DNA of 64,000 nucleotides from a virus, in IMG/VR virus record IMGVR_UViG_3300021373_000005; one strand, 5' to 3'. The position numbers and the translations under genes are program-made. The notes under the pieces are model-generated. The model was not told where the DNA came from, searched no databases, and worked only from the letters and a program-made list of their open reading frames with translations. Shown piece by piece: positions 9,955 to 47,700 of the stretch (positions are counted from its first letter, which is position 1; every line of letters begins with the position of its first letter).

Positions 9955-11202
9955 ATGGCTCGTAATATAGGCACAATTAATACAACACAAACCTTTCAGA
10001 ATTGGTTTGATAAGACCAATGATCTTGTTGAAGAATTACGAGATAACATTATTACGGCCTCTTCAGGTGGAGATACCACAACAGGGGATGCAACTTTAGT
10101 CGGTGATTTTACATCTACTAATTTAATCGCAAGTACTTTACTATCATCCGACCAAATAAGTTCTTCTTCGGGTGGTGTAATTAATTTCCAAGATCCAATA
10201 CAAATTACAGGTACATCTGCTACAACTGCTACTTTCCTTTTCGCAGGAACCGGTGGTCAGACAAGATATACAGACGGAAGTTTATCTTGGGACGTTGGAT
10301 TAGAAAGTTCAAATCCTGGTCATTTTATTATTGATACTGGAACAGGTCAAAATAAATTACAATTATCAGTCGCAGGTACATTAACCGTTCCTGATGCAGT
10401 CGTAACTGGTTCTTTAACTGTAGGAAGCTTGTCAATTGGTGCAGGTGGTGCCGGTTTAAATACAGATGATATTACTGAAGGTTCAACTAACTTATACTTT
10501 ACAAATGCAAGAGCAAGAGGTGCTTTCTCAGGCGGAGACGGTATTGCCATTTCTTCAGGTGGAGTAATATCATTTGATGGTGAAGGTAAATTAACCACTT
10601 ATGAAGGTAATGAATTTAGATTAGCAGGTTCTGTTGATGTAGGAAACAGTTTAAAATCTTATTTAACAGGTGCTCTAGCATTTGGTGTACCGCAAGGACA
10701 ATTAAAATCTGATTGGGCAGGTAATACTTATGAAGTGTTAACATGGTTCCCAGCCGGAGTTTCAGTTAATGGTTATGGTTATTTCACAGATGATATACGA
10801 ACAAACGGCGGAGACATTGTTGTTAAGACAGGTTCAACTATCAAAGCGTTTATGGACCAAGACGGCAATGGTTACTTTACAGGTGATGTAACGACAAACG
10901 GAAGCGCATCAGACGAAAGATTAAAAGAAAATATAATTCCTCTCGAGAAGGGATTAGAAACAGTAGAACAAATAAAAACTTATAAGTTTAATTATAAAGA
11001 CAGACCTGAGGATACACTACCAGGTGTTATTGCTCAGGAGATTGAAAAATTAATACCAGAAGTAGTTTATGATATTGAAATGGAAGATGATACTTACAAA
11101 GCTGTAAGATATCAACAAATTGTGCCAGTACTAATTAACGCAATTAAAGATTTGAGTTTGAAGGTAAAAGATTTAGAAAACCGTCTAAATAACGACGAGT
11201 AA
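9955..11202 (+). CDS. Tail fibre/spike protein with C-terminal S74 intramolecular chaperone
   Basis: N-terminal TFQNWFDKTN anchor-like motif. C-terminal SDERLKENI...GVIAQEIEKLIPEVV...VRYQQIVPVLINAIKDL is the autocleaving chaperone signature (Ser codon 10909). Confidence 0.85.
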   Translation: MARNIGTINTTQTFQNWFDKTNDLVEELRDNIITASSGGDTTTGDATLVGDFTSTNLIASTLLSSDQISSSSGGVINFQDPIQITGTSATTATFLFAGTGGQTRYTDGSLSWDVGLESSNPGHFIIDTGTGQNKLQLSVAGTLTVPDAVVTGSLTVGSLSIGAGGAGLNTDDITEGSTNLYFTNARARGAFSGGDGIAISSGGVISFDGEGKLTTYEGNEFRLAGSVDVGNSLKSYLTGALAFGVPQGQLKSDWAGNTYEVLTWFPAGVSVNGYGYFTDDIRTNGGDIVVKTGSTIKAFMDQDGNGYFTGDVTTNGSASDERLKENIIPLEKGLETVEQIKTYKFNYKDRPEDTLPGVIAQEIEKLIPEVVYDIEMEDDTYKAVRYQQIVPVLINAIKDLSLKVKDLENRLNNDE

Positions 11203-11252: not shown

Positions 11253-14200
11253 ATGGCAAAAATTTCAGAATTACCTCCGATTACCGGTGCCAATACCAGG
11301 CCTGAAGACCTGTTCGTAATCGTCAACCTTGTTCAAGGAGACGACGGCACAAGTAATATTACTAGGAAGGAATTAGTTGAAGCAATTCAATACGAAATCT
11401 TTTCTAGAATAAACATCACTGGTGGAACAATCTCCGGTGTGGTTATGTCTGACTCACGATTAAATAACGTTGAGATAGATAATTCTGAAATTGAAGATAC
11501 CGATTTTATTCGCGGTTCAATTGATGATACCGTAATCACAAACAGTACTGCCAATAATATTACAATGACTTATAGTAGTTTCCAATTTGGAACACTGCTT
11601 GATTCTTCTGCTAACAATTTAACAATTACTTCATCTGACTTTTCACAAGGCACAGGTAATAATAACGTACTCACAAATACTACACTACTTGATGGTAGTG
11701 CTAATAATTTTGTTATTACAGACTCAACTGCCAACAACATTATCATTACGAATTCAGAACTTAATGACAGTACAGCAAATAATGTTGCGATTACAGATTC
11801 AACAGTAAATAACACAATCATAACAAGTTCTGAGTTTAATGACGGAACTGCTAACAACGTAGCAATTACTCAATCTGATTTTTCTGACGGAACAATTAAT
11901 CAATCAGTTATTGAAACTTCCGAGTTTAATAATGGTACGATGGAGACAGTTACTGGTATTAATTTAGATATCAGCAACTCTGCATATGCTAACGGAACTG
12001 TTTCTGATTCTATATTAACAGATAATACTATCCTTAACGGTACAGCAAATAATATTGCGATTACAGATTCAACCGCTAATAATACTATTATAACAAATTC
12101 TGAATTTAATGATGGCACAGGCAACAATGTCACATTAACTAATTCAACAATTGATGATTCACTATTCAGTGATGGTACTATTTCTAATACCTCATTCACA
12201 GGTACAATGGATAGTGTTGTCGCAACCAACATACAAATCAGAAGTTCAACTGCTGATGGTTTAGGTGCAAACAATTCAACGTTTGAAAATGGTGGAATAT
12301 CAGGTTCAACCTTTGACGGTGGCGTAATTAATAAATCCAATCTTGTCGACTTCGACATGGATATTAATACAGAATTTGAAGCACCAATGGATGATGAATC
12401 CTATTTTGCTATTCGTAACGAAAAGACAGGTGATACAGAACAAATTAACTTCGGTCAATTATTCGACGAAGTATCTAAGAAAACAGCACAGGCATTAAAG
12501 GTACACGTTGACGCAGGATCTGGTGATGATAAGAACCCAGGTACTCAATTACAACCTGTTAGAACATTAGAAAAAGCATTTGAACTTTGTTTAGAAAAAG
12601 CAGGTGGCGAATTAAATCGTAACGCAATTAATAACTCTGTTCATATTTCAGTTGGGCCAGGAACATATTATACAAAAGGTAATCTGCAGTTACCTGATGA
12701 CTGTTCAATTACTTCCACATCAGGACAGTATGCGACAGTCATCGAATTAGAAAAAGGTTATGAAAATAATAATGGTATTCTTGTAGGTTCTGGTTGTTAT
12801 GCTCAAGGATTTGCATATCAGAATTTCCAAGTTGATAACTTTGATTTCCCAGAAGGCGGATTCGCGGTTGCGTATCGTCCTGGTGCTAAGTTATTGCGTT
12901 CACCGTACTTAAGAGATAGTTCACAGTTATCAAACTTCTTACGTGCTGATGTTGAACCACCTTTGAATCCTTACAACTCAAAAGGTACTCTTGCTGACTT
13001 AGGTAGAGAATTTACATTAAGTAATATTTCAGATCCTACCAAGTTTGCGATTGATGATGAAATAGAATTCTCATCAGGTGCAATCGGTTATGTATCTTAT
13101 ATTTCTGAAATTGCTTCAGATAGTAAAATACACGTTAGAAATTTAAAGAACAATCAAGGATTCGCTGTAGGAGATACAATTACTGCTGAATCTGGTGGTA
13201 CTGCTGTTATTCAAGAAATCGGAATTGACGACTTCCCTAACAGAGAGGTTGGTCGAGGCGGTGGTTGTGTACTTGCAGATAGAAGAGTACTTGATACCGA
13301 TTCATTATATACATATGTATTATGTTTTGGTTTCACACCTCGTTCACAAAACGGTATCGGTTATGTAGCAAGAGACGGTGCTGGTGTTAACGGTATTGGT
13401 TCATTGTCCATCTTTGTTCGTTGCGCATTCTATGCTCTGAATGGTGGTCAGATGACGCTGAACAACTCAGGTACTCAGTTCGGTGATATCTCAATGAGGG
13501 CAAAAGGTACTACTGAGTTCTTTGCTCCAAAATCAACAACAGCAACAATTATTGGTAATACTGCATTCGCTGATACGGTTGATAATGCTGCTGATGATAT
13601 CATTGATGATGTTGTTGAGTATTTAACTGCCAATACAGCAAATGGTGGATTAGGTTATCAAGCATACGATTCAGAAAAATGTTTAAGAGATTCAGGTATC
13701 GTACTTGATGGTACAGGATATGACGTTGCTCTTGATACGAACTATTGGGGAAGACTTGGTGGAATTACATATAGGTCTCCTATCAGTTATGTTGTACCAG
13801 GTGAACAGCTTGAAGAAACAAAAGGTGCATTAGAATACCTAAGAGATAGAACAAAAGAAATCTTTGTAACGGGTAATTCTGAAGTTAACGAACGTGTTGA
13901 AGCATCCTTTGGGGAACTTTTAAATGTCCTTGAATACGGTGAAGAAAATATCAACCCGATTATATGGCAAGATACTTCAGTACCTCGAACAGCTGCCAGA
14001 AACCTCATACAAGACAACCGAGAGTTTATTACTGGAGAGTTAATTGATTGGATAGAAAACAACGATGAATTCTATGCTTACGATAGTAAAGCTTGTCGAC
14101 GTGATGTATCTGACTATATTCTACCTGCTGTTAAAAACGATATGCAATTTGACACAAACTATAATGCTGTCACTGCAGGTCGTGCTTATTACATGGCTGC

Positions 14201-17200
14201 AGCTAAAACTGTTATTGAAAATCAGAATAACGAAACAGTTGAAGCATATCGCAGATTAAAGGACCAAACAAACGAATTACTTGATGGAGATTCATATACT
14301 GCTTCTGCGAAAACCGATGCAGCCTTTGATGAAATCTTATCTATCCTTGAAAATAAAGGAAAACAGTTTACACCTACTGCCGCTACTTATGACCCAGAAA
14401 CTGGGAAATCAGTTATCACACTCGGCACAGGCCACGGATTAACAGTTGGAAGATATGTACTTCTAAAAACTGGTGGACTCATATTTACTTGTGACCGAGA
14501 TAATCATACAACAAGAACAGGATATCCTCGAGCTTCTGACCCAGCTGCAGGTACTCCGGTTGAAATTATTGGTGCAAACGAAACCAAGATTACAGTTAAT
14601 GTTGGTAAGTCAGCAATTGTTGATGTACACAAATTTGTTGAAGCATTACCTAATTCTGTATCAGTTCTTGGTTCAGCAATTGCATGGAGTGATTCATCGT
14701 CTATTCCTGCTGATAAGAGAAACGCAAGAAAACAACTCGAAGCAAACAGAGAATTCTTACAAGACTTAGTATTAGGATATATTGATAATAACTATTTCAG
14801 ATATGATTCTAACAAGTGCCGTAGAGATATTCAAGATTATATTTTACCTGCGGTTGAAAGAGACATCCTAACAGGTTCAAACTATAATGCATATCAGACA
14901 GGTATTGCTTATCGTTCAGGTACTACTCTTGCGGACAATGTAATTAACGAACAGTTGGTAGAAACAACTGGAGCAATTAACGAATTAAAAACAAGAGTAA
15001 ATACTGATGAGATTGGTTCTCAATTTACTCCGACCAATGCTACTTACGACCCAGTAACTGGAAGATTTGAGGCAACTATTGGTATACATAGTTTACAACC
15101 AGGTGATTATGTAAGGTTCCTTGAAGATGGTATTACATTTAGTTGTGATACAGGAAGCGGACCTACAAACGATGCAGTTCCAAATCCAGGACATCCTTTC
15201 TATAATCATCCTTGCCCTGTTCACTCAGTTACACCTACAACTATTGTATGTTATGTAGGAACAGGCGGTACTAACGATCATACATTTGTATCAGCCCTAA
15301 CAAATGCAATTAGTCATGTGATTGGTATTTCTGATAAGGCATCAGAACATCGTTCAGATGAAGCATTTGATAAAATCATTGGTATTTTAAATAGTGCAAA
15401 TAAAACATACGATACATCTTCTGCTAATTATGACCCAGTGACAGGATTAACTGAAATTACAATCGGTGCTCACGATTTACAAGTCGGTGACGAAGTAATG
15501 ATTGCAGCTGACAGTATGACATTTACTTGTGCAACTGATGGTAATGCAACACAACATACTTACCCAACGACAACAATTACAAGCTTTACTCCAAGTACTG
15601 CTACTTATGTACCTGAAACTGGAGAATTTACTGCTAACATCGGACCTCATAAATTAAAAGTTGGAGATGAAATTGAATTTGCTCCAAGAGGTATTACATT
15701 TACTTGTGAACTTGATGGTAATGTTACTGAACATTCTGCTCCTGAACCACATCATCCTTTCTGGGACAAGAAAGTTAAATTAACTTCAGTTGAAGGAAAT
15801 GTAATTGGATGTAATGTTGGTGCAGTTGCTAACGGCGGTGGAGTACATACATTTGTATCTGCTATCACAAACGCAATCAAAGGTGAAAGACAACATCCTG
15901 CTTATAAGAAACCAGTTGTGGTCGCAGCAACAACAGCAACAACATTTACTGTTAATGTAGGTACCTCAACTGATACTTCTGTTCATACATTCGTATCTGC
16001 TACAGCAGGAAATATTAAAACTGCTAAACATATTTCAACATATACACCTTATGACGCAACATACGATCCTGCGACTGGAGTCTTTGTTGCTTCAATTGGA
16101 AAACACAATTTAGAAGCTGGTGATTATGTAATGATTAAACCTAATTCGGTTATCTTTACATGCGACTTGGACGGTAATGTTACTGAACATGCTGCTCCTC
16201 AATCACACCATCCTGCATACAGAACACCTGTTAAATTGGATTCAGTAACTACTGATACAATTACAATGAACATTGGAACAGGTACTGGAGGTGCTCATAC
16301 ATTTGTTAGAGCAACACAAGGTGCAATTGATTCTGATGCGTTAGTATTTACTGACCCAGCATCTTATGTATCTCATTATACTCCAACAACTGCTACATAC
16401 GATCCTGTCACAGGAATCAGTGTAATTACAATCCCAGGTCATGATTTAACAACAAATGATTATATTGAGTTTGCTCCATATTCATTTACTTATACTTGTG
16501 CTCAAGATAGTAACGCAACTGAACATTCATATCCAAGAAAAGGTGATAGTAATTACAGAACTCCAATGGCAATCACAAATGTTGCTGGTGATGATATTAC
16601 TGTTCAACTTGCTGCATCTTCAGGTGGAGCTCATACATTTGTATCAGTAATTAAGGATGCGGTATCTAAAGTTACTTACAATTCTCAAGGTCAATACGCA
16701 AGAGAACAATTACAGAAAAACAAAGAATTCTTGGCTAAGGAAGTTTCATCTTACTTAGAATCAAATTACTTTGTATTTGACGGAAACAAATGTTCAAGAG
16801 ATACAGGATATATTCTTGATGCCGTAAGACGTGATGTTGCTACAGGTTCTAATTATCATACTGTATTTACAGGACTAGGTTATCAAATAGGAACAAAAGG
16901 TTCTAACGAAGTTATAACAGAACAGTTAACTGAAACAGTTGCTGCTATCAATTATATGAAAGCAAAAGTTGCTGCTGATGTGAATGTCACAGGAACTGCA
17001 TTAACAAGAGCTAACGCTGCGTTTGATGAAATTATTGATATTATGCAAAATGGTTCAGGTAATGCTAATGTTCTAGGTTATGGTTCTGCTGCAGCCGTTC
17101 CTAATGGAGTTGATGCAACTGACGCTTTAATTACAAACAGAACATTCTTACAAAAAGAAGTTACAGCTTACATTGCTCAAAACTTCCCAACAGTATCATA

Positions 17201-20200
17201 CAATGTTGCTAAATGTGAAAGAGATACTGGTTATCTTGTAGATGCAATTGTATGGGATGTAAGATTTGGTTCTAATGCAGCTGCGATTAACTTCGCAAGA
17301 TTATATTACGAAAATGCAATCAGTGTATTACCTGAAGACCAAAAATTACCTACTGCTAAAACATGGGAACACCTCGCAGAAGTTTGTTATAAAATAGCAA
17401 GGCAAGAAACTGTAACTCCAACAACAGGAAACGGTGAAGTATTTACTGCTATCGCAAGTGATGCAGGAATTGAAATTGCGAATGCAATACGCAACGGTGT
17501 TAATGTCACAACGCAAATTATTAGAGATGATGATTTAAAATCATTACCTACATTGAACGAAGGTGAAGTTGAAACCGCAATGATTGCTGCAGTAAATGCA
17601 ATTGATGGTTTAACAGAAAATCTTCAAGAAAGTGTTATTAAATATCTTAAAGATGAACATAACGGATTACCATTCAGTAAAGCAGTTTGTGAAAGAGATG
17701 TTGGTATTATCATCGATGCAGTATCAAGAGATATTGAATACGGCGGTAATGAAAATACAGTTGAAGTATTTGAGTATTACTTCAAGAGATTCAATACAAC
17801 ATCGGCTGATTACGAACAACTACGTTCAACCAATGTTCTTCCAATCGAAGTCAAAGGTCAATTTAAAACATTATCCGATTACGAAGATACAGCAAATGTT
17901 TCAGGTTTAAGAGAAGCAATTAACGTATTACCTTACGAACAGCGTGAACCAACAAGAGAAGCATTTAATCATCTTGCTGATATGGCAGAAAAGATTGTTA
18001 AAGAAGTTGCTCATACTTCAACATATACAAGTTATACACCAACTAATGCTACTTATGACCCGGCAACTGGAGTCTTCGTGGCAACTATCGGTGCTCACAA
18101 TTTTGTAAAAGGTGATACGATATATCTGAAACCAAACGGAATTACATTTAGTTGTAATATGGGAAGTGGTGCTGCCAACCATACTTCACCACAACCACAT
18201 CATCCTTATTATCAGAAAGCAATAACACTTACTGATACTGATGCGACAACAATTACAATGAATGTAGGAACAGGTGGTTCTGGTCAATATCCTCATACAT
18301 TTGTATCTGCTCTTGCGGATTCAATTAGTGAAGGTCCATATCAGGATGTTGATGGAACTGCGGCCGATGCAACAACAGGTACTGCGGTACATGATTTAAT
18401 TGCGACTGTTGCTAACCTGATTGACGATACAAATATTGAAGATGATGAAATGCCTGTAATTACAAAGGCAAGCTTTGACCCTAACAGAACATTAGCAAGA
18501 AAACAATTACAAAGAAACAGAGACTTTATTATCGAAGAAGTCCAAGGTTATCTCAAAGATCGTTACTATGTATTTGACGGTGATAAGTGTAAAAGAGATA
18601 TCGGATTCCTTCTTGATGCTGTAGCAGTTGATGTATTGACTGGTTCAAACTATAATGCAGTATTTAACGGTGTTGCATATAGAATAGGAACAGTTGGTGC
18701 TGATGCGGTAATTAACGAACAGTTAACTGAAACAGTATCAGCAATTAAATATGCTCAAGGTTTAGCAGTTGCTGCTGTCACTGACAGCACAATGAAAACA
18801 AAAGTAAATGAAGCATTTGCTGAAATCATTGATGTTATGACAAATGGTAGAGCAGCCGCTGATACAATTGACTATACAAGTGTTGCACCAAGCTTTAACC
18901 GACTTAATGCAAGGTCTCAGTTACAAAATAACAGAACATTCCTTATTGCTGAAATGACAGCATGGCTTGCAGCAAATCGTCCATCATTAACTTATGATGT
19001 TGCTAAATGTGAAAGAGATACAGGATACTTAATTGATGCTGTTTCTCATGATGCTCAGTTCGGTGGAAACTTTGCTACTCTCAATGATGCAAAACTATAC
19101 TTTGAGAATGCGGTCATTCAATTACCTGAAGAACAAAGACAACCTACAGCAGATGCATTTAAACATTTAGGTGATTGTGCTGAGTTAATTTGTTTAGACC
19201 AAGACATCGGTGGATTAAAATCTGCAGGTAACGGTGAAACACAAGATAGGACAGCAGGTGGTGCAGGAGCAGGTATATCGGCTTCAATAGAAGGATTATT
19301 TGATATCGTAGCAGGTTCAATTGAGAACAATACTACTTTACTTAATCCTGCTCAAGAGTTACCTGATGCAACTTCATTTAACGCTGTAAATTCAACAGCG
19401 TTTGCTCAAGTACAAGGTGTTATCCCAACAGTTCAATCTGGTGTTCTAGGACATCTTGCTACATACTTTGAGATACTTCCATATAGTGAAACAAAATGTC
19501 GAAGAGATACAGGTTATATCATCGATGCAGTTGCACACGATATTCAATATGGTGGAAACGCAGCAACAGTTCAAACTGCAGGAATGTATTTTGAGAATGC
19601 TGTTAACACTGGATTACAAATTGAACAAAGAATGGGAACAAGAGATGCATTCTTACACATGGCAAAAATCATTGAACATGTCGTAGGTGCTAAATCTATT
19701 ACAACAACTTTATTCCCAAGAGTTAAGAAATATTACACAGGTGATATTTTAACTCAATACGATTATTGGAACGGAATACATTCTTATCAATCAGTTGAAG
19801 CTCAAGATATGGCAGTACATGGTGCAAACCCTGATACTTCTATCGCAGCAAGAAAACTTGTTGAAATTATTGCGAATGCGGTTGATGATAATGTTGAAGT
19901 TAGAAATACAATCCCAGATCGCATTGATGTTGACCAAACTTGGATGGGTGCTAACTATATTACTTCTAAGGAATTAGTTGAAAGTCAATCAGATGTATAT
20001 TCTGAAGCAGTTATTAGTTATCTTACAACAACACATAACGGTTTAAGTTTCAGAGATGCAAAATGTAGAAGAGATATCGGATACTTAATTGATTCCGCTA
20101 TGCACGATGTTCAACATGACACAAACTTTGCTATGCGTCAATCAGCAGGAATTTACTTCGAGAATGGAGTATCAGTACTTCCTGTAGATGCAAGAATAGC

Positions 20201-21809
20201 AACTGCTGACATTTATGAATTCTTAGGTGATGCTGCTAAGCAAGTTGTTGAAGGTGTTGCCGTAACGAACGCAAGTACATATACATTAATGCCTCAAGAT
20301 ACAACTACTCATACTGCAGCAACAACTGCTGAAGGTGATAGAGTTCATGAGTTAATTGAATATGTTGAAGATGTAATTAGAGCCAACGATGTTGATGAGT
20401 TACCTGGACCTGAGTTCACAGCTTCTTGGGTACCTGCAGAATTAACAACTGCTGCTCAAACTATTGTTGATAATACAGAAGAACTTGCTTCTGATGTAAC
20501 GAATCATATTAATACAAACTTCAACGTTCTTGATTACAGTAAAGCAAAATGTAGAAGAGATACAGGATACTTACTTGATGCATTCAGCTTCGACTTGAAC
20601 TTCGGTGGTAATACTGCTTCACGTTGGAACGCAGACTTCTACTTCTGGAATTCAGTATATCGTTTACCTGAAGACCAAAGAATACCTACTGCGAAAGCAT
20701 ATCGTCAATTAGGTAGAATTTGTAAAGATATCGTATTAGGTGAATATAAAGGACAAACAACAATTGGTGAAGTAGGAACTTCGGTTGAAAGTCTGAAAGT
20801 TGAAATGTTAGCAAATATCTTCTATAAGACACAACTATATAACGATACCAAGTACTTACCTGTTAAGGAAGAGCCTGATTATACATACAGTGATGCTGTA
20901 TTTACAAATGCACAAAATATTATTGAGCAAAGAAGAAAACAATTACAGAAAGATACTGTAAGATTTGTAAATGCTGCTTACGACTTCATTGATATTAATC
21001 TAACAAGACGTGATGCAAGAAACTTGTTAACCGCTCTTCAGAATGATTTCAAATATGAAGATCTTCAAGTACCTGTTCCAAGTTATACAACAAACGGTAA
21101 TCAGAATGCAGTAAGAACATATACCGCTTCATTCTTCAATTACGACGGAACTCATGTATTCCCAGTATTTAATCCTTCGGATCCAACATTAGGATTGAAG
21201 TATAAAGGTTCAGTTAATGATGTTGCTGATTTAGGAAGTCTTACAGGAATGAAACCAAACTGGGCATATATTGTTGCGACTGATTATGCAACTAATTACT
21301 ATGCCGGTGATATATATTATTGGAATGGTATTCAGTTCGTAAATGCAGGAGCAAACAATACTGACCTATTAGATGCATTTGTTGGATCATGGGACAGAAT
21401 GAGAACATACATTGTAAATAATCTATCTCCTGACTCAGACCACAGTCTGATGATTGAAGGATTATTTGACGATTGCTTGAAGGATAATATCTTGAGACCT
21501 AATACATTGGTATTCGGATCATTGGTTGAATCCATTGCTCACCAGTTTAACGGTGCATCGGCTGGTGTTAACAGAAATGCATTACCTCTAAACTTCAGAA
21601 ACTTAGGTGCTGCTATATCAGCGATTGCCTCGGTACTGAATGAAGATGGTGGTAGAATCCGATGGTCAGGTGCTGATGAATTGAATAACCAGTACTTCGC
21701 AAGAGGACTAAGAATTAACGGTAGAACAGGTCGTATTGAAGGCCGACCATTTACTTCCTCTGTAAGAAAGCTCGCAAGACGTGCTTCGAACAGTAGGGCA
21801 GTAGTTTAA
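11253..21809 (+). CDS. Giant (3518 aa) multi-repeat virion structural/appendage protein
   Basis: Contains, in order: MAKISELP anchor-like N-terminus; Asn/Thr/Ser-rich beta-solenoid repeats; pectin-lyase-like beta-helix entry motif (VHVDAGSGDDKNPG...PVRTLEKA); 11 helical C-x-R-D repeats; 7 beta-rich YDPxTG...TFTC...HxFVSA repeats; conserved-looking C-terminus GGRIRWSGADE...INGRTGRIEGRPF. Confidence 0.85.
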   Translation: MAKISELPPITGANTRPEDLFVIVNLVQGDDGTSNITRKELVEAIQYEIFSRINITGGTISGVVMSDSRLNNVEIDNSEIEDTDFIRGSIDDTVITNSTANNITMTYSSFQFGTLLDSSANNLTITSSDFSQGTGNNNVLTNTTLLDGSANNFVITDSTANNIIITNSELNDSTANNVAITDSTVNNTIITSSEFNDGTANNVAITQSDFSDGTINQSVIETSEFNNGTMETVTGINLDISNSAYANGTVSDSILTDNTILNGTANNIAITDSTANNTIITNSEFNDGTGNNVTLTNSTIDDSLFSDGTISNTSFTGTMDSVVATNIQIRSSTADGLGANNSTFENGGISGSTFDGGVINKSNLVDFDMDINTEFEAPMDDESYFAIRNEKTGDTEQINFGQLFDEVSKKTAQALKVHVDAGSGDDKNPGTQLQPVRTLEKAFELCLEKAGGELNRNAINNSVHISVGPGTYYTKGNLQLPDDCSITSTSGQYATVIELEKGYENNNGILVGSGCYAQGFAYQNFQVDNFDFPEGGFAVAYRPGAKLLRSPYLRDSSQLSNFLRADVEPPLNPYNSKGTLADLGREFTLSNISDPTKFAIDDEIEFSSGAIGYVSYISEIASDSKIHVRNLKNNQGFAVGDTITAESGGTAVIQEIGIDDFPNREVGRGGGCVLADRRVLDTDSLYTYVLCFGFTPRSQNGIGYVARDGAGVNGIGSLSIFVRCAFYALNGGQMTLNNSGTQFGDISMRAKGTTEFFAPKSTTATIIGNTAFADTVDNAADDIIDDVVEYLTANTANGGLGYQAYDSEKCLRDSGIVLDGTGYDVALDTNYWGRLGGITYRSPISYVVPGEQLEETKGALEYLRDRTKEIFVTGNSEVNERVEASFGELLNVLEYGEENINPIIWQDTSVPRTAARNLIQDNREFITGELIDWIENNDEFYAYDSKACRRDVSDYILPAVKNDMQFDTNYNAVTAGRAYYMAAAKTVIENQNNETVEAYRRLKDQTNELLDGDSYTASAKTDAAFDEILSILENKGKQFTPTAATYDPETGKSVITLGTGHGLTVGRYVLLKTGGLIFTCDRDNHTTRTGYPRASDPAAGTPVEIIGANETKITVNVGKSAIVDVHKFVEALPNSVSVLGSAIAWSDSSSIPADKRNARKQLEANREFLQDLVLGYIDNNYFRYDSNKCRRDIQDYILPAVERDILTGSNYNAYQTGIAYRSGTTLADNVINEQLVETTGAINELKTRVNTDEIGSQFTPTNATYDPVTGRFEATIGIHSLQPGDYVRFLEDGITFSCDTGSGPTNDAVPNPGHPFYNHPCPVHSVTPTTIVCYVGTGGTNDHTFVSALTNAISHVIGISDKASEHRSDEAFDKIIGILNSANKTYDTSSANYDPVTGLTEITIGAHDLQVGDEVMIAADSMTFTCATDGNATQHTYPTTTITSFTPSTATYVPETGEFTANIGPHKLKVGDEIEFAPRGITFTCELDGNVTEHSAPEPHHPFWDKKVKLTSVEGNVIGCNVGAVANGGGVHTFVSAITNAIKGERQHPAYKKPVVVAATTATTFTVNVGTSTDTSVHTFVSATAGNIKTAKHISTYTPYDATYDPATGVFVASIGKHNLEAGDYVMIKPNSVIFTCDLDGNVTEHAAPQSHHPAYRTPVKLDSVTTDTITMNIGTGTGGAHTFVRATQGAIDSDALVFTDPASYVSHYTPTTATYDPVTGISVITIPGHDLTTNDYIEFAPYSFTYTCAQDSNATEHSYPRKGDSNYRTPMAITNVAGDDITVQLAASSGGAHTFVSVIKDAVSKVTYNSQGQYAREQLQKNKEFLAKEVSSYLESNYFVFDGNKCSRDTGYILDAVRRDVATGSNYHTVFTGLGYQIGTKGSNEVITEQLTETVAAINYMKAKVAADVNVTGTALTRANAAFDEIIDIMQNGSGNANVLGYGSAAAVPNGVDATDALITNRTFLQKEVTAYIAQNFPTVSYNVAKCERDTGYLVDAIVWDVRFGSNAAAINFARLYYENAISVLPEDQKLPTAKTWEHLAEVCYKIARQETVTPTTGNGEVFTAIASDAGIEIANAIRNGVNVTTQIIRDDDLKSLPTLNEGEVETAMIAAVNAIDGLTENLQESVIKYLKDEHNGLPFSKAVCERDVGIIIDAVSRDIEYGGNENTVEVFEYYFKRFNTTSADYEQLRSTNVLPIEVKGQFKTLSDYEDTANVSGLREAINVLPYEQREPTREAFNHLADMAEKIVKEVAHTSTYTSYTPTNATYDPATGVFVATIGAHNFVKGDTIYLKPNGITFSCNMGSGAANHTSPQPHHPYYQKAITLTDTDATTITMNVGTGGSGQYPHTFVSALADSISEGPYQDVDGTAADATTGTAVHDLIATVANLIDDTNIEDDEMPVITKASFDPNRTLARKQLQRNRDFIIEEVQGYLKDRYYVFDGDKCKRDIGFLLDAVAVDVLTGSNYNAVFNGVAYRIGTVGADAVINEQLTETVSAIKYAQGLAVAAVTDSTMKTKVNEAFAEIIDVMTNGRAAADTIDYTSVAPSFNRLNARSQLQNNRTFLIAEMTAWLAANRPSLTYDVAKCERDTGYLIDAVSHDAQFGGNFATLNDAKLYFENAVIQLPEEQRQPTADAFKHLGDCAELICLDQDIGGLKSAGNGETQDRTAGGAGAGISASIEGLFDIVAGSIENNTTLLNPAQELPDATSFNAVNSTAFAQVQGVIPTVQSGVLGHLATYFEILPYSETKCRRDTGYIIDAVAHDIQYGGNAATVQTAGMYFENAVNTGLQIEQRMGTRDAFLHMAKIIEHVVGAKSITTTLFPRVKKYYTGDILTQYDYWNGIHSYQSVEAQDMAVHGANPDTSIAARKLVEIIANAVDDNVEVRNTIPDRIDVDQTWMGANYITSKELVESQSDVYSEAVISYLTTTHNGLSFRDAKCRRDIGYLIDSAMHDVQHDTNFAMRQSAGIYFENGVSVLPVDARIATADIYEFLGDAAKQVVEGVAVTNASTYTLMPQDTTTHTAATTAEGDRVHELIEYVEDVIRANDVDELPGPEFTASWVPAELTTAAQTIVDNTEELASDVTNHINTNFNVLDYSKAKCRRDTGYLLDAFSFDLNFGGNTASRWNADFYFWNSVYRLPEDQRIPTAKAYRQLGRICKDIVLGEYKGQTTIGEVGTSVESLKVEMLANIFYKTQLYNDTKYLPVKEEPDYTYSDAVFTNAQNIIEQRRKQLQKDTVRFVNAAYDFIDINLTRRDARNLLTALQNDFKYEDLQVPVPSYTTNGNQNAVRTYTASFFNYDGTHVFPVFNPSDPTLGLKYKGSVNDVADLGSLTGMKPNWAYIVATDYATNYYAGDIYYWNGIQFVNAGANNTDLLDAFVGSWDRMRTYIVNNLSPDSDHSLMIEGLFDDCLKDNILRPNTLVFGSLVESIAHQFNGASAGVNRNALPLNFRNLGAAISAIASVLNEDGGRIRWSGADELNNQYFARGLRINGRTGRIEGRPFTSSVRKLARRASNSRAVV
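11430..12360 (+). repeat. Asn/Thr/Ser-rich ~5-residue-period protein repeat (ITDSTANN / ITNSEFNDGT)
   Basis: Repeated ITDSTANNIIITNSE(F/L)NDGTANN-type units in the translation. Confidence 0.75.
13620..20800 (+). repeat. Eleven dispersed helical domains with invariant C-x-R-D motif
   Basis: In-frame Cys codons at 13680, 14094, 14817, 16791, 17214, 17688, 18588, 19008, 19497, 20064 and 20550, each followed by x-R-D. A degenerate copy (TRRDARNLL) lies near 21000. Confidence 0.9.
14370..18333 (+). repeat. Seven ~100-aa beta-rich repeats (TPTxATYDPxTG...HxLxxGD...TFTC...HxFVSA)
   Basis: Copies start at about 14370, 15027, 15411, 15588, 16044, 16380 and 18036. Confidence 0.85.
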
Positions 21810-35308: not shown

Positions 35309-35358
35309 AAGGTATACATTGAACAATTTAAACCGCCTATCTGGGGAGAGTGAACCGA

Positions 35359-38300
35359 ATGGCAAATGATAAGAAATTTATAGTCAAGAATGGTCTCTTG
35401 ACACCGGAAAATGCTGTCATCGGCAGCAATACGGATACTGGTGAAAAACTCCAGGTCACCGGTGACACAGTCCTAACCCAAGGTACGCAAGGTACTCCGA
35501 CTTTAAAAGTTACTAATTCAGGTGGAGCTTCCGCTTCTACAATCGTTGCCCAATTTGAAGGTGATTCTGATTCACTCCAGATTCGCAATATTGGGACAGG
35601 CGATTATTCAATCACAAATCCTCAGCAAGGAAATAGTATTGAATTTTATGACGGTACCGCAGGTATTGTTATTAAATATGCAGGCTCAAATAAATTAGCA
35701 TTCACAAGTACAGGAACTGATTTTACAGGTCTTTCTAATACAACGATTGAAGGTAATCGTATTCTTACAACTGCAGATGAAGGTGCAGGTAATGGATTAG
35801 ATGCTGATACAGTTGATGGATTACAAGCAAGTCAATTCTTAAGATCCGATGTTGATGATACTGCCGCAGGTAATATAAACTTTTCACAAGATATTGATGT
35901 CGCAGGTTCTGCTCAAGTTGATGTTAACTTAACAGTTGATGGTCAAGCAGTTATTAAAGCTTTACTTGATGCACAAGCAAATGCTCAAGTCGCTGGTAAT
36001 TTAACGGTTAGTGGAGATCTTTTAGTTTCAGGTAATACGACAACTGTTAATACCGAAGAAATTCTACTTGCTGATAATATTATTACTCTTAATAGTAATT
36101 ACACAGGCTCAACTCCATCAGAAGATAGCGGTATTGAAATTGAGCGTGGTACATTAGCAAATCCAAAACTTGTTTGGAATGAATCTCAGGACTATTGGGA
36201 ACTACAAGTTAATGGTTCAGTACTTGGTCGAATTATTACAACAGCAGATGAAGGTTCAGGAAATGGATTTGATGCTGATACTGTTGACGGTTTAGAGGCA
36301 GAGCAATTCTTACGTAGTGATGCTGATGATACTGCTACAGGTAATATTACAATTGAAGGTGATCTTACAATTGGAGATGATTCAGGTCCTGCTCAAATTA
36401 TCTTTGACGGTAATGGAGTTAATCGTACTTTATATTCAGCAACAGGTGAAATTGGATTTTTAAACAATGCTGCTAACTGGGCGGCAAGATCTAATGCAAA
36501 TGGTGATTGGATTGTTGAACGAGATGTTTCAGCAGGTAGAGATGTAATTGCTACGAATGATGTTACAGCAACAAGTGGTGATGTAACTGCTGGTGATAGT
36601 ATTACAGCACAAAATAATATTACAGCAACGACAGGTAATATTGCTGCTTCAGCAGGAAGTGTAACAGCACAAACAAACGTAACAGCAGTTACAGGTAATG
36701 TTTCAGCAACAGCTGGTGACGTAACTGCAGGTGATGATGTCATTGCACAAAATGATGTCACAGCAACAACTGGTGATGTTTCGGCCACAGCAGGTAATGT
36801 AACTGCTGGCGACAGCATGACAGCTCAAAATGATATTACAGCTACAACGGGTGATATTACAGCTTCTGCTGGTGACGTCCAAGCAACAGTAGGAAATGTT
36901 AGAGCTGGTGAAGATGTATACGGTAAGAAATTTATCGATGTCAACGATGGAACCTATATTGTAAATCCAAATTCAAGCTCAACAATGCATGAAATTGGAA
37001 TTGATGATAATCTTTTCCATAACGGCGATACAGATACAAGATTAAGATTTGAAACTGACAATATACAATTAAGAACAGGCGGTTCCGATAGATTAGATAT
37101 TAATAATTCAAGAGTCCAATCTAACCTCGACATATATGCACCCAATGTTCGTATAAATGATTCACTTATTCATAACGGTGATACAGATACAAAAATTACT
37201 TTTGCTACTGACACTGTAGATATTGACACAGGCGGTTCAACAAGATTAACCGCGAATAACTCAGGAGTCACAATTGAAGGTGATCTTGATGTTAATGGAG
37301 ATATTACAGCAGTTAATGGTACATTCACAGGTGACCTTGCTGCTTCAAGATTTTTAGATGCTGATAACAATAACTATTATGCGGACCCTAACTCAACATC
37401 AGTAATGAATCGTATCGGCATTGACGATTACATTCAACATAACGGCGATACAAATACTTACTTTGGATTTAATGCTAACGATAATATTCAATTCTTTACT
37501 GATGCAACACAAAGAGTTGAAATCAATGGCACAAACTTTACAAGTACCGTTGATGGTATATTCCCTAATTTATATGCAGGAAGATATTACGATTTAAATA
37601 ACGCAACTTATTATTTAGACCCAGCAAGTAATTCAAGACTGAATGGTATTGCTCTTGTCGGAACAATTTACCACGACGGTGATACTGATACATATTTAAA
37701 CTTTAACGGTGCAAATAGTTTTGAAGTTGTCACAGGAAACGCTCAAAGATTATTAGTTAACAATACTTATGTGTTAGCAAATAACCAAATGCGTTCACCT
37801 ATTTACTACGATAACAATAATACAAATTATTATGGTAACTTTGCTTCTACATCGCAAATGTCTCAAATTGACATTGATTCGTATATTCGTCATCGCGGTG
37901 ATACAAATACTTATCTTGGATTTGATGCAAATGATAGTATTACATTCGTAACGGGTGGTGCTGAAAGAGTTAATATTACCGATGCAAATACAACATTCTT
38001 CCAACCTGTTATTGTTCAAGGTGATATTCAAGCAGACAGATTTGTTGATAGACAAAACACAGGTTATTATTTAAACCCTGCTGATACATCCATAGCTGCT
38101 ACATTAAACGGTAGAGTATTAATCGGTAATGTAACTGATTCCGCAAGATGGGATGATAATTCAGGAAACGGTGGTATTTCATTAATGCCACATGGTTCAT
38201 ATGCAGGAACACAAAATACTACAGTAGGAATTAGTGGTAACGTTTCTGGTGGTTATTCATTAATGTATTTGAATCTTATTGATTCTTCTTCTAACCCAAC

Positions 38301-41300
38301 AGGAAACGGTCAAAGATATATTCATTTCTATCATGATGGAACAGACGGTGGTTCTATTCGTGGTGATAGTTCAGGTAACTTATATCAAGTATTAAAGTCA
38401 GGAACCAATTGGGGATTCTGGACATCAGGATTTAGTGAAGCATTAATTGTTGATGATAGTGGTAATGTAATGGTTGCTTCCGGTACTTCACCTACTTATA
38501 CAGACGGTGGTGATAATACGGCTCTTACCACAACTCCTTCGACACCTAAACTACATGTTGGCGGTTCAATTTATCTAAATGGAAATAACGACGGTATTAT
38601 CTTTGGTCGTGGTACAGCATCCTTCCTGAAAGACGAAGAACTTGCCTTTGGTTGGGGTGGCGGTTGGTATATGCAAGATGGCACATACCTAAGAGTCAGA
38701 AATAATAAAACAATTTATTCTACAGGTGATGCTCACCTTAACAGATATTATGCATATCAGAATACAGCTTATTACCTTGACCCAGATGGTGACTCACAAT
38801 TAAATACAGTTGACATTGATGATTACATTCGTCATCGTGGTGATACAAATACTTTAATTGGTTTCTCAGGTAATGATACATTACTTTTCCAAACAAATGG
38901 TGTTAATCGTTTACAAATTAATAACGGTGCATTTAGGTCAAGAAATAATACAGTACAATTCTACTCAAGTGGAATTGAAATACAAAAACAAAGTAATGGC
39001 GGTGGTGTAGGACTTACAGTATCAGACCAAAACAGTGGAGAGCAACCAGGATTAAGTGGATTACAGCAAGGTTCTATTACATTCTGGCATGCTGATGGAG
39101 CTGTCACAACAGGCTCTAATGCCGCTTGGTATTTTAATTCTTCCGAAGCAATTACTCATTACGTATTTGGAACAAACAGCGGAGCAGCTGGTGGTAATCT
39201 TGTCCCAGTCGTTAACAACTCTGGTAGTTTAGGTAATTCAAGTTATCGTTGGGGTTCAATATACGCAGGAACAGGTGATTTCTCAGGTAATGTAACTGGT
39301 AATAATGCTTACTTCTATCGTTACTATGATAGGAATGATTCCACATATTACGCTGACCCAGCAAGTACTTCTTATCAACAGTTTATGAATATTAATGTTG
39401 GTAACGAAAACACAGGCGGTGCAAACTCAAGTACTAACGGATTGATGATGAGAGGTAATTACAATAGTAATACCTGGGCTCATAAATTCCATAAGTTTGA
39501 CCACGGTGGCGGAGTACCGATTTACTTATCAGAAACAATTGGTACAGCTGCTTGGAATCCAGTACAAAGATGGGGAACATATACAGGAAATGGATTTAAG
39601 TCGCAAATATTTGGTACTCTAAAAGTTGATACAAATATTCATACACCAATATTGTATGATTCAGATAACTCTGGATATTATGTAGATCCTGCCGGATCAT
39701 CAAGAATGAATACAATTACTCTTGATGGCAATGCAGTTGTATTAAGAGAACCTACAGGAACATTTGGTTCACTTGCTATTGATGGCGGCGGAAGAAATGG
39801 TTGGGAAGGATTCTCAATCGGTGACCGCATGGTATTCATGCATGATAATGCAAATAGAGTAGGTGTTTACAATGATGTAGAAAATGAATGGATTTGGTAC
39901 GCAGATAGAAATGCTCAGATGCGATTAATGTATAATGGCGCTGAACAAGCAAGAACAGAAAACGGATACTTCCTAGCACCTAACCAAATGCGTGCACCTA
40001 TTTACTACGATTCAAATAATACAGGCTATTACGTAGATGGTAATAATACGTCAAGATTCAATGCAGTTCAAGCATTAAGATATTACTTTAACCACGCAAC
40101 TACATACTACGCTGATGCAGCATCAGGTGATTATGGTTCAATGGAAGTTGGTGGTCAAAAGAATGGTTGGGCTGGTTATTCTATCGCAGGTCAATGGGTC
40201 TTAATGTCTCCAGGTGTTGACCGTGTTGGTATATACAATGATACTGATAACAAATGGCAGCAGCAGTGGTATAGAAACGCTGGTACATTGATGTACTATA
40301 ATGCTGTAGTCCAGGCAGAAACAAGAAGCGGTTACTTCCTCGCAAATAACCAAATGCGAGCACCAATCTATTATGATTCAAATGATTCAACATATTACTT
40401 AAACCCAGCAGCAGGTAATACAAACCGTGCATTAATGATTAACGGTAGAATATACCGTCAAGGTTTTGCTGGTGGTGATGGAAATAATAACAAACTATTA
40501 GAAACTCAAGACTATTCACATTGGATTTGGAACACTGCTACTGATTGGGGTATTTTCTGGGCAGGTAATGATAATCCATATCGTTCACACTTCAGTACAT
40601 CTAATCCTAATGAAATTGTATTCATAGGTAATGGAAACTTAAGAGCAAGTATTGACCTTGATAATGGTAATGCTCACTTTGTTGGTACTGTATCTGCTGG
40701 TAGTTTTGCACTTAATGGTGGAAATGAAAATATTGAAATTATTAAGTCATACGGTTCAGGTGGAGCTGACTTAGTACTATTTGATGGAACAGAATATTTT
40801 GATAAGCGTGTCATTAAAGCAATGGCACCTAACGAAAGTCCACTTACTACAACTACTTCAGAATATGTAAGAACAACAGACGGTCCTTTCGCAGGTTCTT
40901 ATGTATTACAAACATCTTCTTATAGAACATTCTATTCAGATTACATTCCTGTTGCTCCTGGTGAAGAATTATACGGTGAAATTTCTGTTAAGCGTATTTC
41001 AGGTTCAGGCGGTTTGGTTTATTATGGTATTGAAAGATTTGATAGTCAGAAGAGACCTATTGCTGGAAACACAGGTACAACATACTTCGTTGTAGGTGGA
41101 GCAAACTATACAGGTACATCTTGGAATACATATAGAAACCATACAACAATTCCAACATCTCATACTCCATATAATGGGTCTGACGGCGGAGGTGTTTATT
41201 ATGTAAGAATTCGTATCTTAATGAACTACAACTCTGGTGGTGCTTTAAGACAGTTTGCCGGAATCATGCTCAAACGTCGTAATGCTGAATCTAATTTATT

Positions 41301-44300
41301 AGTTGATGATTTACAAGTACTTGATGATGTGACAATCGGCGGAGATGCAACCATAACAGGTGACTTAACTGTCGATGATATTACGGCTGACGTTATTGAT
41401 GCAAGAAGATTTAGAGATAGAGATAATACTGGATATTATATCGACCCTAAAGATGGAAGTAATGTTGTAGGATCTTGGAACTGGAATAACGGTTCAATTG
41501 AAAATCTAAACAACCTTTCATTCAATGACCCAGGCCCTCAAGAAGGTATTCGTTGGAAAGGTGGTAATGAATGGAAGATTTATGAATCACCAGATAACTT
41601 AAGTTCTAACTCAGGCGGTAATTTACAATTCACATCAGGTAATGGCGCAGGTACTTATCAGATGAGATTGAATACGAGCGGTCGAATGGACGTTCGTGGG
41701 CAAATCAGAACACCTATTGTATATGACTTAAACGATACAGCCTGGTATGTAGATCCTCACTCAGGTTCAAGGTTCAAAGATTTAGAAATACAAGATACAA
41801 GAAGTTCAGATATCTTAACAGTATATAGAACAGGTTCAGCGCCAGGAAACTATACTGCAGCAAGGACAATTAACCAATACGGTAATCACTCTTGGGGTAT
41901 TGTTCATGAATTCAGAATTGGTGATAGGAGCTCACAAAGTGTACCTAGTGGTACTGACCGACCTTCTATTTTATTCTCAACTGGATATAATACAACAACT
42001 TGGTCAGTTGGTTTCGGTTATGTAGATAACGATTTTAGAATCAAACAAAATCACGGTCATATAAATCAATCTTGGGGTACTGAGAGATTTAGAATTAATA
42101 CAAGCGGTGAAGTATTCATTGGAAATAGCTTATGGGGTGCTAACGCATACTTCAACCGTTATTATGACAGAAACAATACTGGATATTATGCTGACCCAGC
42201 AAGTACATCTGTATTTAACGCAATGGTATTTAATGGCGACGTTGATTTCAACGGTGGTGCTAATGCGATTAATATTACAAGTTCTGATATTCGTTCAGAC
42301 GGTAATTCAACTTGGACAGGAAACCCAGGTGCAGGTGTAGGTAAGATTCAAATGCACTCTAACCGTTGGTACATTGTATCTAACGGAAACTCAAATAGAA
42401 TTGTTCAGTTTAGACAAAATGGTTCTGATAGGTCTTATATTGCGAATGATGGTAGATTAATCGGTGTTGGTGGTACAGCTTCTCAGGATTTCAGAGCTCC
42501 AATCTTCTACGATACAAATGATACTAGTTATTATGCAAACCCAGCAAGTGATTCAAGATTTAGTACATTAACACTTCGTGGTAATAGATTAGGATTTGTT
42601 AATACAGCGTTTGATGCAGAGATACGAGTAACTGATAATAACCCAGACGGTACAGGTGCAACATTTGTATTCTGGGGTGACCAAGTAGAATATAATGCTG
42701 AAGTAGCAACCGAAGTATTCAGAGCAACACGACATATGCGTGCTCCTGTATATTATGATTTAAATAATGCTTCATACTACGGTGACTTTGGTGGTACATC
42801 TTACATGAACGATGTAAGAGCTAATATTGTTTACGATAGAAACAACACTGCTTACTATGTACATAATTCGAGCGGTGATGCTCGAATGAGAAATGTTAGA
42901 ACAAATAACATTCAAGTTGAAAACGGCGCAACAATCACATCTGTAAATAATAATGGTAGAATTTATCTTGGTGGTAATTTACATATTGATGCTCAAAATG
43001 GTTTAGACATTTATATGAACTATTACTCGGGTAGAAGGTTCAGATCTTTCTCACCTGGTCAATACGAATCATTCAGAGTTGATACTGACCGTATTACATA
43101 CGCATTTGCTCAATTCAGAACTCCATTAATTTACGATTATAATAATACTGGTTACTATCTTGATATGAATAACAACTCAAGGTTTAACGACCTTATGTTG
43201 AGAGGATTATACGTAACCACGCGTTATCATTCAGGTTCTGACTTTGTTAATGGTACTCTTGTAAGAACAAGTATTCCTGCGACCGCAACTAACGGAGCTT
43301 CATTCGTACTTGAAGCAACAGGTAAATCTTATTCAGGTGATCCACCGTTTATGTTTACCGCACAAGGTTACTTATATGCTAATACTATTATTAATCATTC
43401 TGGTCAACATATTGGTAAGGCCGGATTTAGTACAATGCGTATATTTGAAAACGGTGGAGTATTATGTTTCTGGTGGCCTCGCGTATCTTATTGGAACTCC
43501 TTCTCTGTTCATGTAAGAAATGCAAACGGTGATGATAGAAACTTAGTCACAAGCGTTTCAAATTCATCTTTACCAGGATACTCGAAAGGTGTGACAACAA
43601 CAATGCGTACTACCGCAATGTACAATGTTAACATTGGTACAGGTGATATGTATGCACAACGTTACTACGATAGCAACAATACATTCTATTACGGAGACTT
43701 TGCCTCTAGTTCTAGGATGAACGAAGTAAACATTTACGGAAGTTTAAGAAATCAAGGTGGAACTCCGCATTACTTCTATACAGGTGCTGGAAACTTAAGA
43801 GGTTATATACGAGCCACAGATTCTAATGATTCTCACTTTGAATTTGCTACATCAGGTGGAGAGGACTTCATCTTCCGTGATGGTGGATTTGGAGGTTCTT
43901 GGAATCAGATTATTAGAGGTAATGGTCATGTATTAGTAGCATCAAGATTTGATACTCCTATTATGTATGATAGGAATAATACAGGTTATTATTCTGACCC
44001 AGCAAGTACTTCGCGTTTCAACACAATGCGAACAAACAGAATTTATCCTGCTTATGATAACGCAGGAGATATGTATTTAGATTGGCCTTCAGGTAATTAC
44101 GGTTCAATCCAAACAAACGGTGGCGGTAAAGGCGGCTGGGAAGGTTATTCAATCAATGGTCGTTATGTATTCATGTCGTCAAATAACAACGAATGTGGTA
44201 TTTACAACGACATTGATAATGAATGGATGACAATCTGGCGTCGTAACGGCAGAACTGAAATATTCCATAACGGTACTTGGGAAGAATACGCTCAGCCCGG

Positions 44301-46915: not shown

Positions 46916-47353
46916 ATGGCACTTAGCACAGATTATACATGGACCTGGGAAGTAACTGGTTTGAAAAAACAAGACCAAGTTAACTCTGAAGGTGCAAACT
47001 TAGCTGGAGCAGTTGTTCAAACATATTGGAAATTGACTGGTGTAGACGGTAGTGGTAATGAAGGAGAGTTCGCAGGAGCAACTCCTTTTAACGCAACCAA
47101 TGTACCAGCAGGTTCTTTTGTGGCTTTTGAAGATTTGACAGAAGAAACAGTTTTAGGCTGGATTAAAAATGTAGTTGAAACTGACCAAGGATATGCTGAC
47201 CATATCTCAAGCAGAGTTAAATTACAAATTGACGATGCAACTATTGAAGAAGCTTCTATGCCTTGGGCACCTGAAGAGGAAGTAGTTGACCCAGTCATTG
47301 AAGCTGAAGCACCAGCTGAAGGCGAAAGCGATCCAGAACCAGCAGCTGAATAA
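46916..47353 (+). CDS. Hypothetical fibre-associated protein (paralogue 1; DUF7936-like)
   Basis: YTWTWEVTGL...VVQTYWKLTGVD...FVAFEDLTEETVLGW; strong SD. Confidence 0.75.
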   Translation: MALSTDYTWTWEVTGLKKQDQVNSEGANLAGAVVQTYWKLTGVDGSGNEGEFAGATPFNATNVPAGSFVAFEDLTEETVLGWIKNVVETDQGYADHISSRVKLQIDDATIEEASMPWAPEEEVVDPVIEAEAPAEGESDPEPAAE

Positions 47354-47367: not shown

Positions 47368-47700
47368 ATGAATTACTCATGGGAAATAATTAAGCTTCAT
47401 ACAAGAGAGCAGACCAACGCAGATGGTGTTGCGTTGGCTGATGCTGTTGTGAAAATTAAATGGAGAAGAACTGGAGTCGATACAGACGGCAATTCTGCTA
47501 AAGTTGTAGGATATACAATTTTATCAGCAGAAGATATTGCTGAAGGTGACTTTACTTCATTTGCTGATTTAACGGAAGAAAAGGTTGTAGGTTGGTTAAA
47601 CTCAACAATCTCTTCATCTGAAATTGAAGCTTACAACCTAAAGATACAAGAGTCGATAAATAAATTGGTAACGACAGAACGCGCAGTTCCTTGGTCTTAA
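47368..47700 (+). CDS. Hypothetical fibre-associated protein (paralogue 2)
   Basis: YSWEIIKL...VVKIKWRRTGVD...FTSFADLTEEKVVGW, clearly homologous to 46916..47353; GGAG SD. Confidence 0.75.
   Translation: MNYSWEIIKLHTREQTNADGVALADAVVKIKWRRTGVDTDGNSAKVVGYTILSAEDIAEGDFTSFADLTEEKVVGWLNSTISSSEIEAYNLKIQESINKLVTTERAVPWS

Follow-up and report, generated by a model that had tools for sequence, protein, structure and literature searches.

Tandem phycobiliprotein-like domains with a candidate bilin-attachment site in a giant fibre-type protein of an uncultured marine phage

Introduction

Why would a protein that appears to belong to a phage particle carry, eleven times over, the short motif by which phycobiliproteins hold their pigment? 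The question arises from IMG/VR record IMGVR_UViG_3300021373_000005, a viral DNA stretch of 64,000 nucleotides that is referred to here as the window. A single open reading frame (ORF) on the + strand, at 11253–21809, encodes 3518 amino acids (aa), and sequence comparison suggests that its product is a giant virion protein of the baseplate or tail-fibre type, from a T4-like marine myovirus that has not been cultured. An initial annotation of the window had proposed that this is a phage structural protein built from tandem phycobiliprotein-like domains of globin fold, each with a bilin-attachment-type Cys, that it might act in light sensing, photoprotection or mimicry, and that it could be the missing acceptor of phage-made bilins. 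In phycobiliproteins the attachment motif is CXRD, in which Cys forms a thioether while Arg and Asp hydrogen-bond to the bilin (PMC10151467). Our literature searches found no publication describing these phage domains.

Eleven repeats with an invariant motif

C-x-R-D is encoded at 11 of the 11 Cys codons reported earlier (13680, 14094, 14817, 16791, 17214, 17688, 18588, 19008, 19497, 20064 and 20550), all of them within the ORF, and the peptides and flanking helices quoted with them are present as written; the array, which had been placed at 13620–20800, is slightly wider and spans 13524–20849. The giant protein holds 12 such motifs where 0.09 would be expected from residue composition. The twelfth, CDRD at 14490, is part of a beta-barrel repeat and not of a globin-like domain, and none occurs in the other 30 ORFs of the window. 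Aligned over 160 residues around each Cys (alignment A1, 11 copies), the repeats form a helical domain of about 150 aa with 20–40% identity, in which the C, R and D of the motif are invariant together with D at Cys+14, N at +20, Y at +30 and T at +46.

The motif is equally stable among relatives. A translated search of IMG/VR with this single protein as query gave 80 loci at 37–99% identity. Sixty full-length orthologues, reaching down to about 37% identity, have eleven copies apiece, with Cys kept in 660 of 660 copies and Arg absent from just six, all of them copies of domain 7. Over the 842 copies from the 80 loci and the window, conservation is 99% for C, 99% for R, 100% for D, 99% for D+14, 95% for N+20 and 99% for Y+30; the few copies lacking Cys are the decayed twelfth half-domain and some fragments truncated at a contig end. 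A related IMG/VR protein (L077, 1559–14104) has 20 domain copies against the 11 described here.

When 1.84 billion representative proteins were searched with a profile of the domain, 1432 matched with E no higher than 0.001, and the best 150 of these are without exception large (844–6382 aa) with 5–37 copies. That these cluster representatives are nearly all giant and repetitive is typical of fibre building blocks, and it favours a reading in which the repeats are structural only, that is, rigid helical beads which lengthen a fibre and carry no chromophore. The Cys, Arg and Asp would then stabilise the fold or a trimer, either by inter-chain disulfides or by a buried salt bridge or hydrogen-bond network with D+14, N+20 and Y+30. 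There is one conserved Cys per domain, and an intradomain disulfide is therefore impossible; the unbroken retention of Cys in the 660 orthologous copies of an extracellular protein also speaks against beads without a ligand.

A predicted phycobiliprotein-type fold

Domain 8 was modelled with AlphaFold2 (AF2), with no templates, from alignment A2, which holds 136 sequences of orthologous and paralogous copies. The model has six helices, a mean predicted local distance difference test (pLDDT) score of 93.1 and a predicted template modelling (pTM) score of 0.88. When a single repeat is compared with the PDB by Foldseek, as the initial annotation had suggested, phycobiliproteins rank first and occupy all 50 top places (template modelling (TM) score 0.57–0.67, E 3e-3 to 2e-2), in alignments of 154–161 columns against a model of 161 residues. 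VIA-align, which is independent of Foldseek, places phycobiliproteins in all of its top seven ranks, with Z 14.8 for far-red allophycocyanin, 14.6 for phycoerythrin and 13.5 for the bilin-binding domain of ApcE; below them come photocobilin at Z 12.0 and then heme sensor globins at 11.6 or less. By VIA's own note, unrelated chains can give helical models a Z of about 14, which weakens the case from these values; it is therefore the uniformity of the top matches, and not the score alone, that makes the structural evidence. At the level of predicted structure the claimed fold is borne out by AF2, Foldseek and VIA together, and the repeats very probably adopt a phycobiliprotein-type globin fold.

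As in phycobiliproteins (PF00502: phycocyanin, phycoerythrin, allophycocyanin and the PB domain of ApcE), the predicted globin-type fold runs from helix A/B to helix H, and Cys-x-Arg-Asp is found early in the third model helix, the counterpart of helix E in phycobiliproteins. Only two helices (residues 13–24 and 26–40) precede the Cys-bearing one, and the alignments begin late, at phycobiliprotein residue 18–36 in the structural comparisons and at about residue 33 with hhalign; the N-terminal X-Y hairpin, which builds the alpha-beta units of phycobiliproteins, is therefore absent. Its absence is a point in favour of a purely structural role. Moreover, phycobiliprotein subunits are free proteins of about 165 aa, whereas the 3518-aa virion protein contains the phage domain 11 times within its chain.

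Conserved polar residues of the model fall on one face of the Cys helix (C51, D54, A61 and D65, that is i, i+3, i+10 and i+14), with further conserved residues at N71, Y81, Q93 and T97. Such a surface could also serve a different ligand, for instance a metal, heme or a molecule of the host surface, or present a reactive Cys for covalent adhesion, on an inherited or convergent globin scaffold, and heme-binding sensor globins were indeed matched (Z 11–11.6). A heme-binding globin was rejected as there is no conserved His for ligation. In addition, phycobiliproteins stand above heme globins in both structure searches and the motif equals the bilin site residue for residue, which makes a non-bilin site improbable. 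The globin domains of photoglobin and photocobilin (8j2w and 8j2y, VIA Z 12.0 and 10.7) resemble the phage domains in having a globin fold, one that binds bilin; they differ in having a site of CXQD type and in their fusion to B12-binding domains (PMC10151467), and they score below phycobiliproteins.

Correspondence with the chromophore site

Does the resemblance reflect common descent? With hhalign, the 136-sequence domain alignment was compared with 18 phycobiliprotein genes of three cyanobacterial genomes and gave P 1.1e-4 over 114 columns. In this register C51-x-R53-D54 falls on Cys81-x-Arg-Asp, the invariant Tyr on the Tyr of RETY and the next L-P on V-P, and both families thus have a Tyr followed by (L/V)-P. 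When the orthologue groups were compared separately, 11 of 11 gave the same register with P 7.6e-5 to 0.033, against 0.056–0.84 for a reversed phycobiliprotein control. The three best matches of the 11-copy profile A1 among PDB sequences are all phycobiliproteins (E 0.2–1.1), and HMMER alignments to ApcF-like, APC beta and CpcA chains put the repeat Cys on the chromophore Cys. The description of this residue as a bilin-attachment-type Cys agrees with both alignment methods, and its position, exactly homologous to that of the chromophore Cys, speaks against the domains being structural beads only.

Several results weigh against kinship. The Pfam family PF00502 scores 17.2 bits (E 0.005) where the cut-off is 22.2 bits, matching aa 1844–1930 of domain 4 on profile positions 73–154, and with single repeats it matches 2 of 11 at a best E of 0.0023. 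The larger profile A2 retrieved no phycobiliprotein from PDB sequences, only coiled-coil-like noise; profile A1 did not find the phycobiliprotein genes in five cyanobacterial genomes; and the best HH probability is only 56–62%. The invariant D+14 and N+20 are without an equivalent in phycobiliproteins, which may indicate a different ligand or role; as extra polar residues they also suit a structural module.

Taken with the modest Foldseek E values and the ease with which helical models reach high Z with unrelated chains, these non-significant hidden Markov model (HMM)-to-sequence searches could mean that a helical bundle resembles phycobiliproteins by chance and bears a chance C-x-R-D. Coincidence would then have to account for a Foldseek top 50 and a VIA top seven drawn from one family, for all eleven orthologue groups surpassing the reversed control in one register, and for the simultaneous alignment of the motif, the RETY Tyr and the L-P or V-P that follows, and we consider it very improbable. 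The sequence-to-profile searches remain below threshold, and homology is therefore likely, not proven; on balance, the alignments indicate that the repeats probably share ancestry with bilin-binding globins.

A possible bilin-binding fibre

Bilin biosynthesis-associated globins (BBAGs; Rockwell, Martin and Lagarias 2023, PMC10151467) are phycobiliprotein kin outside oxygenic phototrophs, as the phage domains probably are, and some of them have CXRD. They self-attach bilins and are linked to genes for heme oxygenase and ferredoxin-dependent bilin reductase (FDBR), both of which are present in G002, a relative of the phage studied here. CXRD-bearing BBAGs of heterotrophic bacteria attach bilins in E. 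coli without a lyase (PMC10151467), and a missing lyase gene is therefore no obstacle in principle. Compared by description, BBAGs are stand-alone globins adjoining an FDBR or heme oxygenase gene, whereas the phage domains form part of a structural protein and, in G002, lie about 60 kb from hemO-pcyX.

We propose that the core of the giant protein is a chain of eleven globin-type domains and a decayed half-copy, interleaved with small beta-barrels, the domains being distant relatives of phycobiliproteins and of their non-photosynthetic paralogues, the BBAGs, with the chromophore site kept in the equivalent place. Each domain would take up a linear tetrapyrrole during folding in the infected cell and bind it through its Cys. 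In phages with hemO-pcyX this pigment would be phycoerythrobilin, and in others a bilin of the host; attachment would be self-catalysed as in BBAGs or, in cyanophages, CpeT-assisted. The fibre would leave the cell pigmented, and its most likely use would be to make adsorption or baseplate triggering light-dependent. Covalent binding of bilin by the domains, the chromophore-binding step of this proposal, is a genuine possibility that we put forward tentatively. That the whole virion is a biliprotein with about eleven covalent bilins, a phage-borne photoreceptor permitting adsorption or baseplate triggering only in light, is a far bolder suggestion and an unlikely one.

Bilin genes in related phages

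The sheath protein of the phage is nearest (40–43% aa identity) to those of phages of Stenotrophomonas, Sinorhizobium, Caulobacter and Pelagibacter, not of cyanophages, and neither psbA/psbD nor CpeT was found in five related records, including contigs of 156 kb and 170 kb. The host is likely not a cyanobacterium, and the phage domains differ from phycobiliproteins in belonging to a phage without photosynthesis genes.

Of five long related records, one has bilin genes. This relative, G002 (170 kb, 77% complete), has an orthologue of the giant protein, 53% identical over the C-terminal 815 aa, encoded near 100–110 kb, and adjacent hemO and FDBR genes at 37.9–39.2 kb. Its FDBR resembles PcyX, a phage enzyme of known structure (5owg, E 2e-40), much more than it does PcyA (6e-14). 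If gene order is as in G002, hemO-pcyX would be expected beyond the window, some 60 kb upstream of the fibre gene. What such phages use hemO-pcyX for was described as unknown (PMC11480375). The 159-aa ORF that immediately follows pcyX in G002 was considered as a free globin and rejected, as it belongs to no Pfam family and gives no signal with hhalign. Next to hemO-pcyX, in divergent orientation, lies a gene for a class 3 lipase (Pfam Lipase_3, E 2e-25; L082 2015–2812, G002 39277–40074).

Cyanophage relatives and light-dependent adsorption

By tblastn the domain was detected in 220 phage records, all of them cyanophages, and structure matches in BFVD are to cyanophage proteins named "tail", "structural" or "tail fiber-like", none annotated as phycobiliprotein-like. 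The giant "short tail fiber" of cyanomyoviruses (T4-like GC 734) and the gp7-like wedge protein carry the same domain in the same baseplate/fibre module, as seen in S-PM2, Syn1, S-RSM4 and P-HM2; the P-HM2 carrier is annotated as gp7, baseplate wedge protein. They differ from the protein of the window in being about 25% identical to it and in generally having fewer copies (1–11), and the phages differ in having phycobilisome-bearing hosts and often cpeT. Most cyanophage copies retain the Cys and the Asp at the fourth position.

Among 17 complete cyanomyoviruses the domain is present in 14 and CpeT in 12, and all 12 CpeT carriers have the domain (one-sided Fisher p 0.015, uncorrected for relatedness). 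The three without the domain, P-SSM2, S-SM2 and S-SSM7, are also without CpeT, while S-ShM2 and P-SSM7 have the domain and no CpeT. In S-PM2, Syn1 and S-RSM4, which represent three cyanophage genera, cpeT precedes the giant "short tail fiber" gene that carries the domain by 0.7–1.5 kb and has the same orientation (NC_006820 163952–177267, NC_015288 19938–33236 and NC_013085 162121–177047), with gp12 next where annotated. The order in S-PM2 and Syn1 is GC730, cpeT, 2OG-Fe(II) oxygenase (GC104) and fibre gene (GC734), with a small ORF or tRNA also in between; in S-RSM4 an HNH endonuclease gene and five tRNA genes separate cpeT from the fibre gene. In the RefSeq entry of S-PM2 (NC_006820), 15 tRNA features, all tagged S-PM2t009, are placed at 168556–170625 inside the 3779-aa "short tail fiber" coding sequence, which looks like an annotation or coordinate problem.

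Adsorption of P-HM1, P-HM2 and S-PM2 takes place only in light, independently of host photosynthesis, while that of P-SSM2 proceeds in the dark; the authors suggested light-sensitive receptors or tail fibres (PMC6628666). The three light-dependent phages have the domain, with canonical C-x-R-D copies, and the dark-adsorbing P-SSM2 lacks it. As this match concerns four phages, two of them near-identical, it is a lead and not evidence.

How far do these genomes support a pigmented fibre? The suggested co-occurrence with bilin genes is seen in part: G002 combines an orthologue with hemO-pcyX, and in cyanomyoviruses the domain tracks cpeT. The following observations speak against bilin binding. 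No bilin genes lie within the window, none were found in the 156-kb relative (73% complete), and the five related records hold no CpeT lyase. The domain was not found in five further PcyX contigs, which are only 21–42% complete. Within the lineage, co-occurrence of domain and bilin genes therefore amounts to one genome, since the 156-kb relative lacks the genes and the other PcyX contigs are too short. In the 17 cyanophages the domain is not associated with heme oxygenase or FDBR genes; the CpeT link itself rests on 17 related genomes and gives p 0.05 when a weak match in P-SSM4 is left out; and many cyanophage copies read C-E-D-D or C-K-T-D in place of C-x-R-D. Pigmented phage particles have, to our knowledge, never been reported. 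A complete 149.5-kb relative with 43% sheath identity (G016) is without the domain, CpeT and psbA.

Tolerance of Arg loss in cyanophages, and the lack of bilin genes in most carriers of the domain, would both be expected of helical beads that only lengthen a fibre, while the cpeT neighbourhood and the hemO-pcyX link are not, and we regard this structural reading as possible but doubtful. As for the domains being the missing acceptor of phage-made bilins, G002 fits the idea, whereas the window and the 156-kb relative, without bilin genes, do not, and neither does the lack of any link to heme oxygenase or FDBR genes in the 17 cyanophages. Bilin binding, a role in light and the acceptor function are plausible, with circumstantial genomic support.

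If the virion does act as such a pigmented photoreceptor, the hemO-pcyX cassettes of phages that make phycoerythrobilin in apparently non-photosynthetic hosts would gain a target (PMC11480375), cyanophage CpeT would gain a role, and the light-dependent adsorption of S-PM2, P-HM1 and P-HM2 would be explained (PMC6628666). Three puzzles, namely phage phycoerythrobilin, CpeT and light-only adsorption, would thus become testable with one protein. The bilin-binding globins, which were only lately proposed to have arisen outside cyanobacteria (PMC10151467), would also gain a phage branch, and pigmented virions would be a new kind of virus–environment interaction. Even if the domains bind nothing, they would still show plainly how a light-harvesting fold has been taken over as a building block of fibres.

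Architecture of the giant protein and its neighbours

The product of 11253–21809 matches PHROG families of tail fibre, short tail fibre and virion structural proteins (E 1e-117 to 1e-43). Its neighbours are a baseplate wedge subunit, several giant fibre-type proteins and a fibre with an S74 chaperone; the module further includes a neck protein, gp15, small and large terminase, sheath, tube and portal. Position in this module and kinship to known fibre families place the gene among T4-like fibre/baseplate genes, in agreement with the phage structural protein first proposed.

All parts of the giant protein described next are read on the + strand. An N-terminal pentapeptide-like repeat region covers about aa 60–370 (11430–12362); Pfam Pentapeptide_4 matches the N-terminal 300 or so residues with E 4.5e-9 and 36.7 bits, just below the 38-bit cut-off, and the repeats are readable in the translation. 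Between these repeats and domain 1 lies a Cys-rich region (window 12500–13500, aa ~420–750), the start of which ("G-S-G-D-D-K-N-P-G-T ... P-V-R-T-L") may resemble the starts of right-handed beta-helices of DUF1565 type.

The phycobiliprotein-like domains were delimited by HMM envelopes and the motif. Domain 1 (aa 758–913, Cys810) lies at 13524–13991 with CLRD at 13680, domain 2 (aa 906–1054, Cys948) at 13968–14414 and domain 3 (aa 1142–1299, Cys1189) at 14676–15149. After a gap come domain 4 (aa 1801–1958, Cys1847; 16653–17126), the source of the sub-threshold PF00502 match, domain 5 (aa 1941–2088, Cys1988; 17073–17516) and domain 6 (aa 2096–2302, Cys2146; 17538–18158), the last with an insertion of about 45 aa after its third helix. 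Domain 7 (aa 2397–2547, Cys2446) is found at 18441–18893 and the modelled domain 8 (aa 2536–2696, Cys2586), the copy used with AF2, Foldseek and VIA, at 18858–19340; they are followed by domains 9 (aa 2699–2862, Cys2749; 19347–19838), 10 (aa 2888–3040, Cys2938; 19914–20372) and 11 (aa 3050–3199, Cys3100; 20400–20849). The degenerate twelfth half-domain (aa 3204–3270; 20862–21062), in which T-R-R-D replaces C-x-R-D, was recognised by a weak HMM match (E 0.002, profile positions 6–68), and the same Cys-less copy is found in orthologues.

A block of small beta-barrel repeats ("T-Y-D-P-x-T-G ... F-T-C ... H-T-F-V") at 14358–16688 is interleaved with domain 3, and an additional copy lies at 18024–18350. 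There are seven copies of about 105 aa each, one of which (aa 1383–1445 and 1544–1595) is split by a complete copy nested within it (aa 1442–1547). Over 415 copies G16, C44, P56 and H89/90 are invariant and H25 is near-invariant, and the conserved Cys and His may form a metal site. The AF2 model has eight strands (pLDDT 93.1), and its structure matches are all generic (phi92 endosialidase barrel, TM 0.57; VIA Z below 8).

Directly upstream of the giant gene, at 9955–11202, a 415-aa fibre carries a C-terminal Peptidase_S74 chaperone domain (E 2.6e-13). Two adjacent DUF7936 paralogues, at 46916–47353 and 47368–47700, follow a 3699-aa ORF (35350–46449). Finally, the structural module contains two cytidylyltransferase-like genes (49964–50743 and 57222–57668), one of them fused to a mannose-6-phosphate isomerase/cupin domain, which may reflect sugar-nucleotide metabolism or virion glycosylation.

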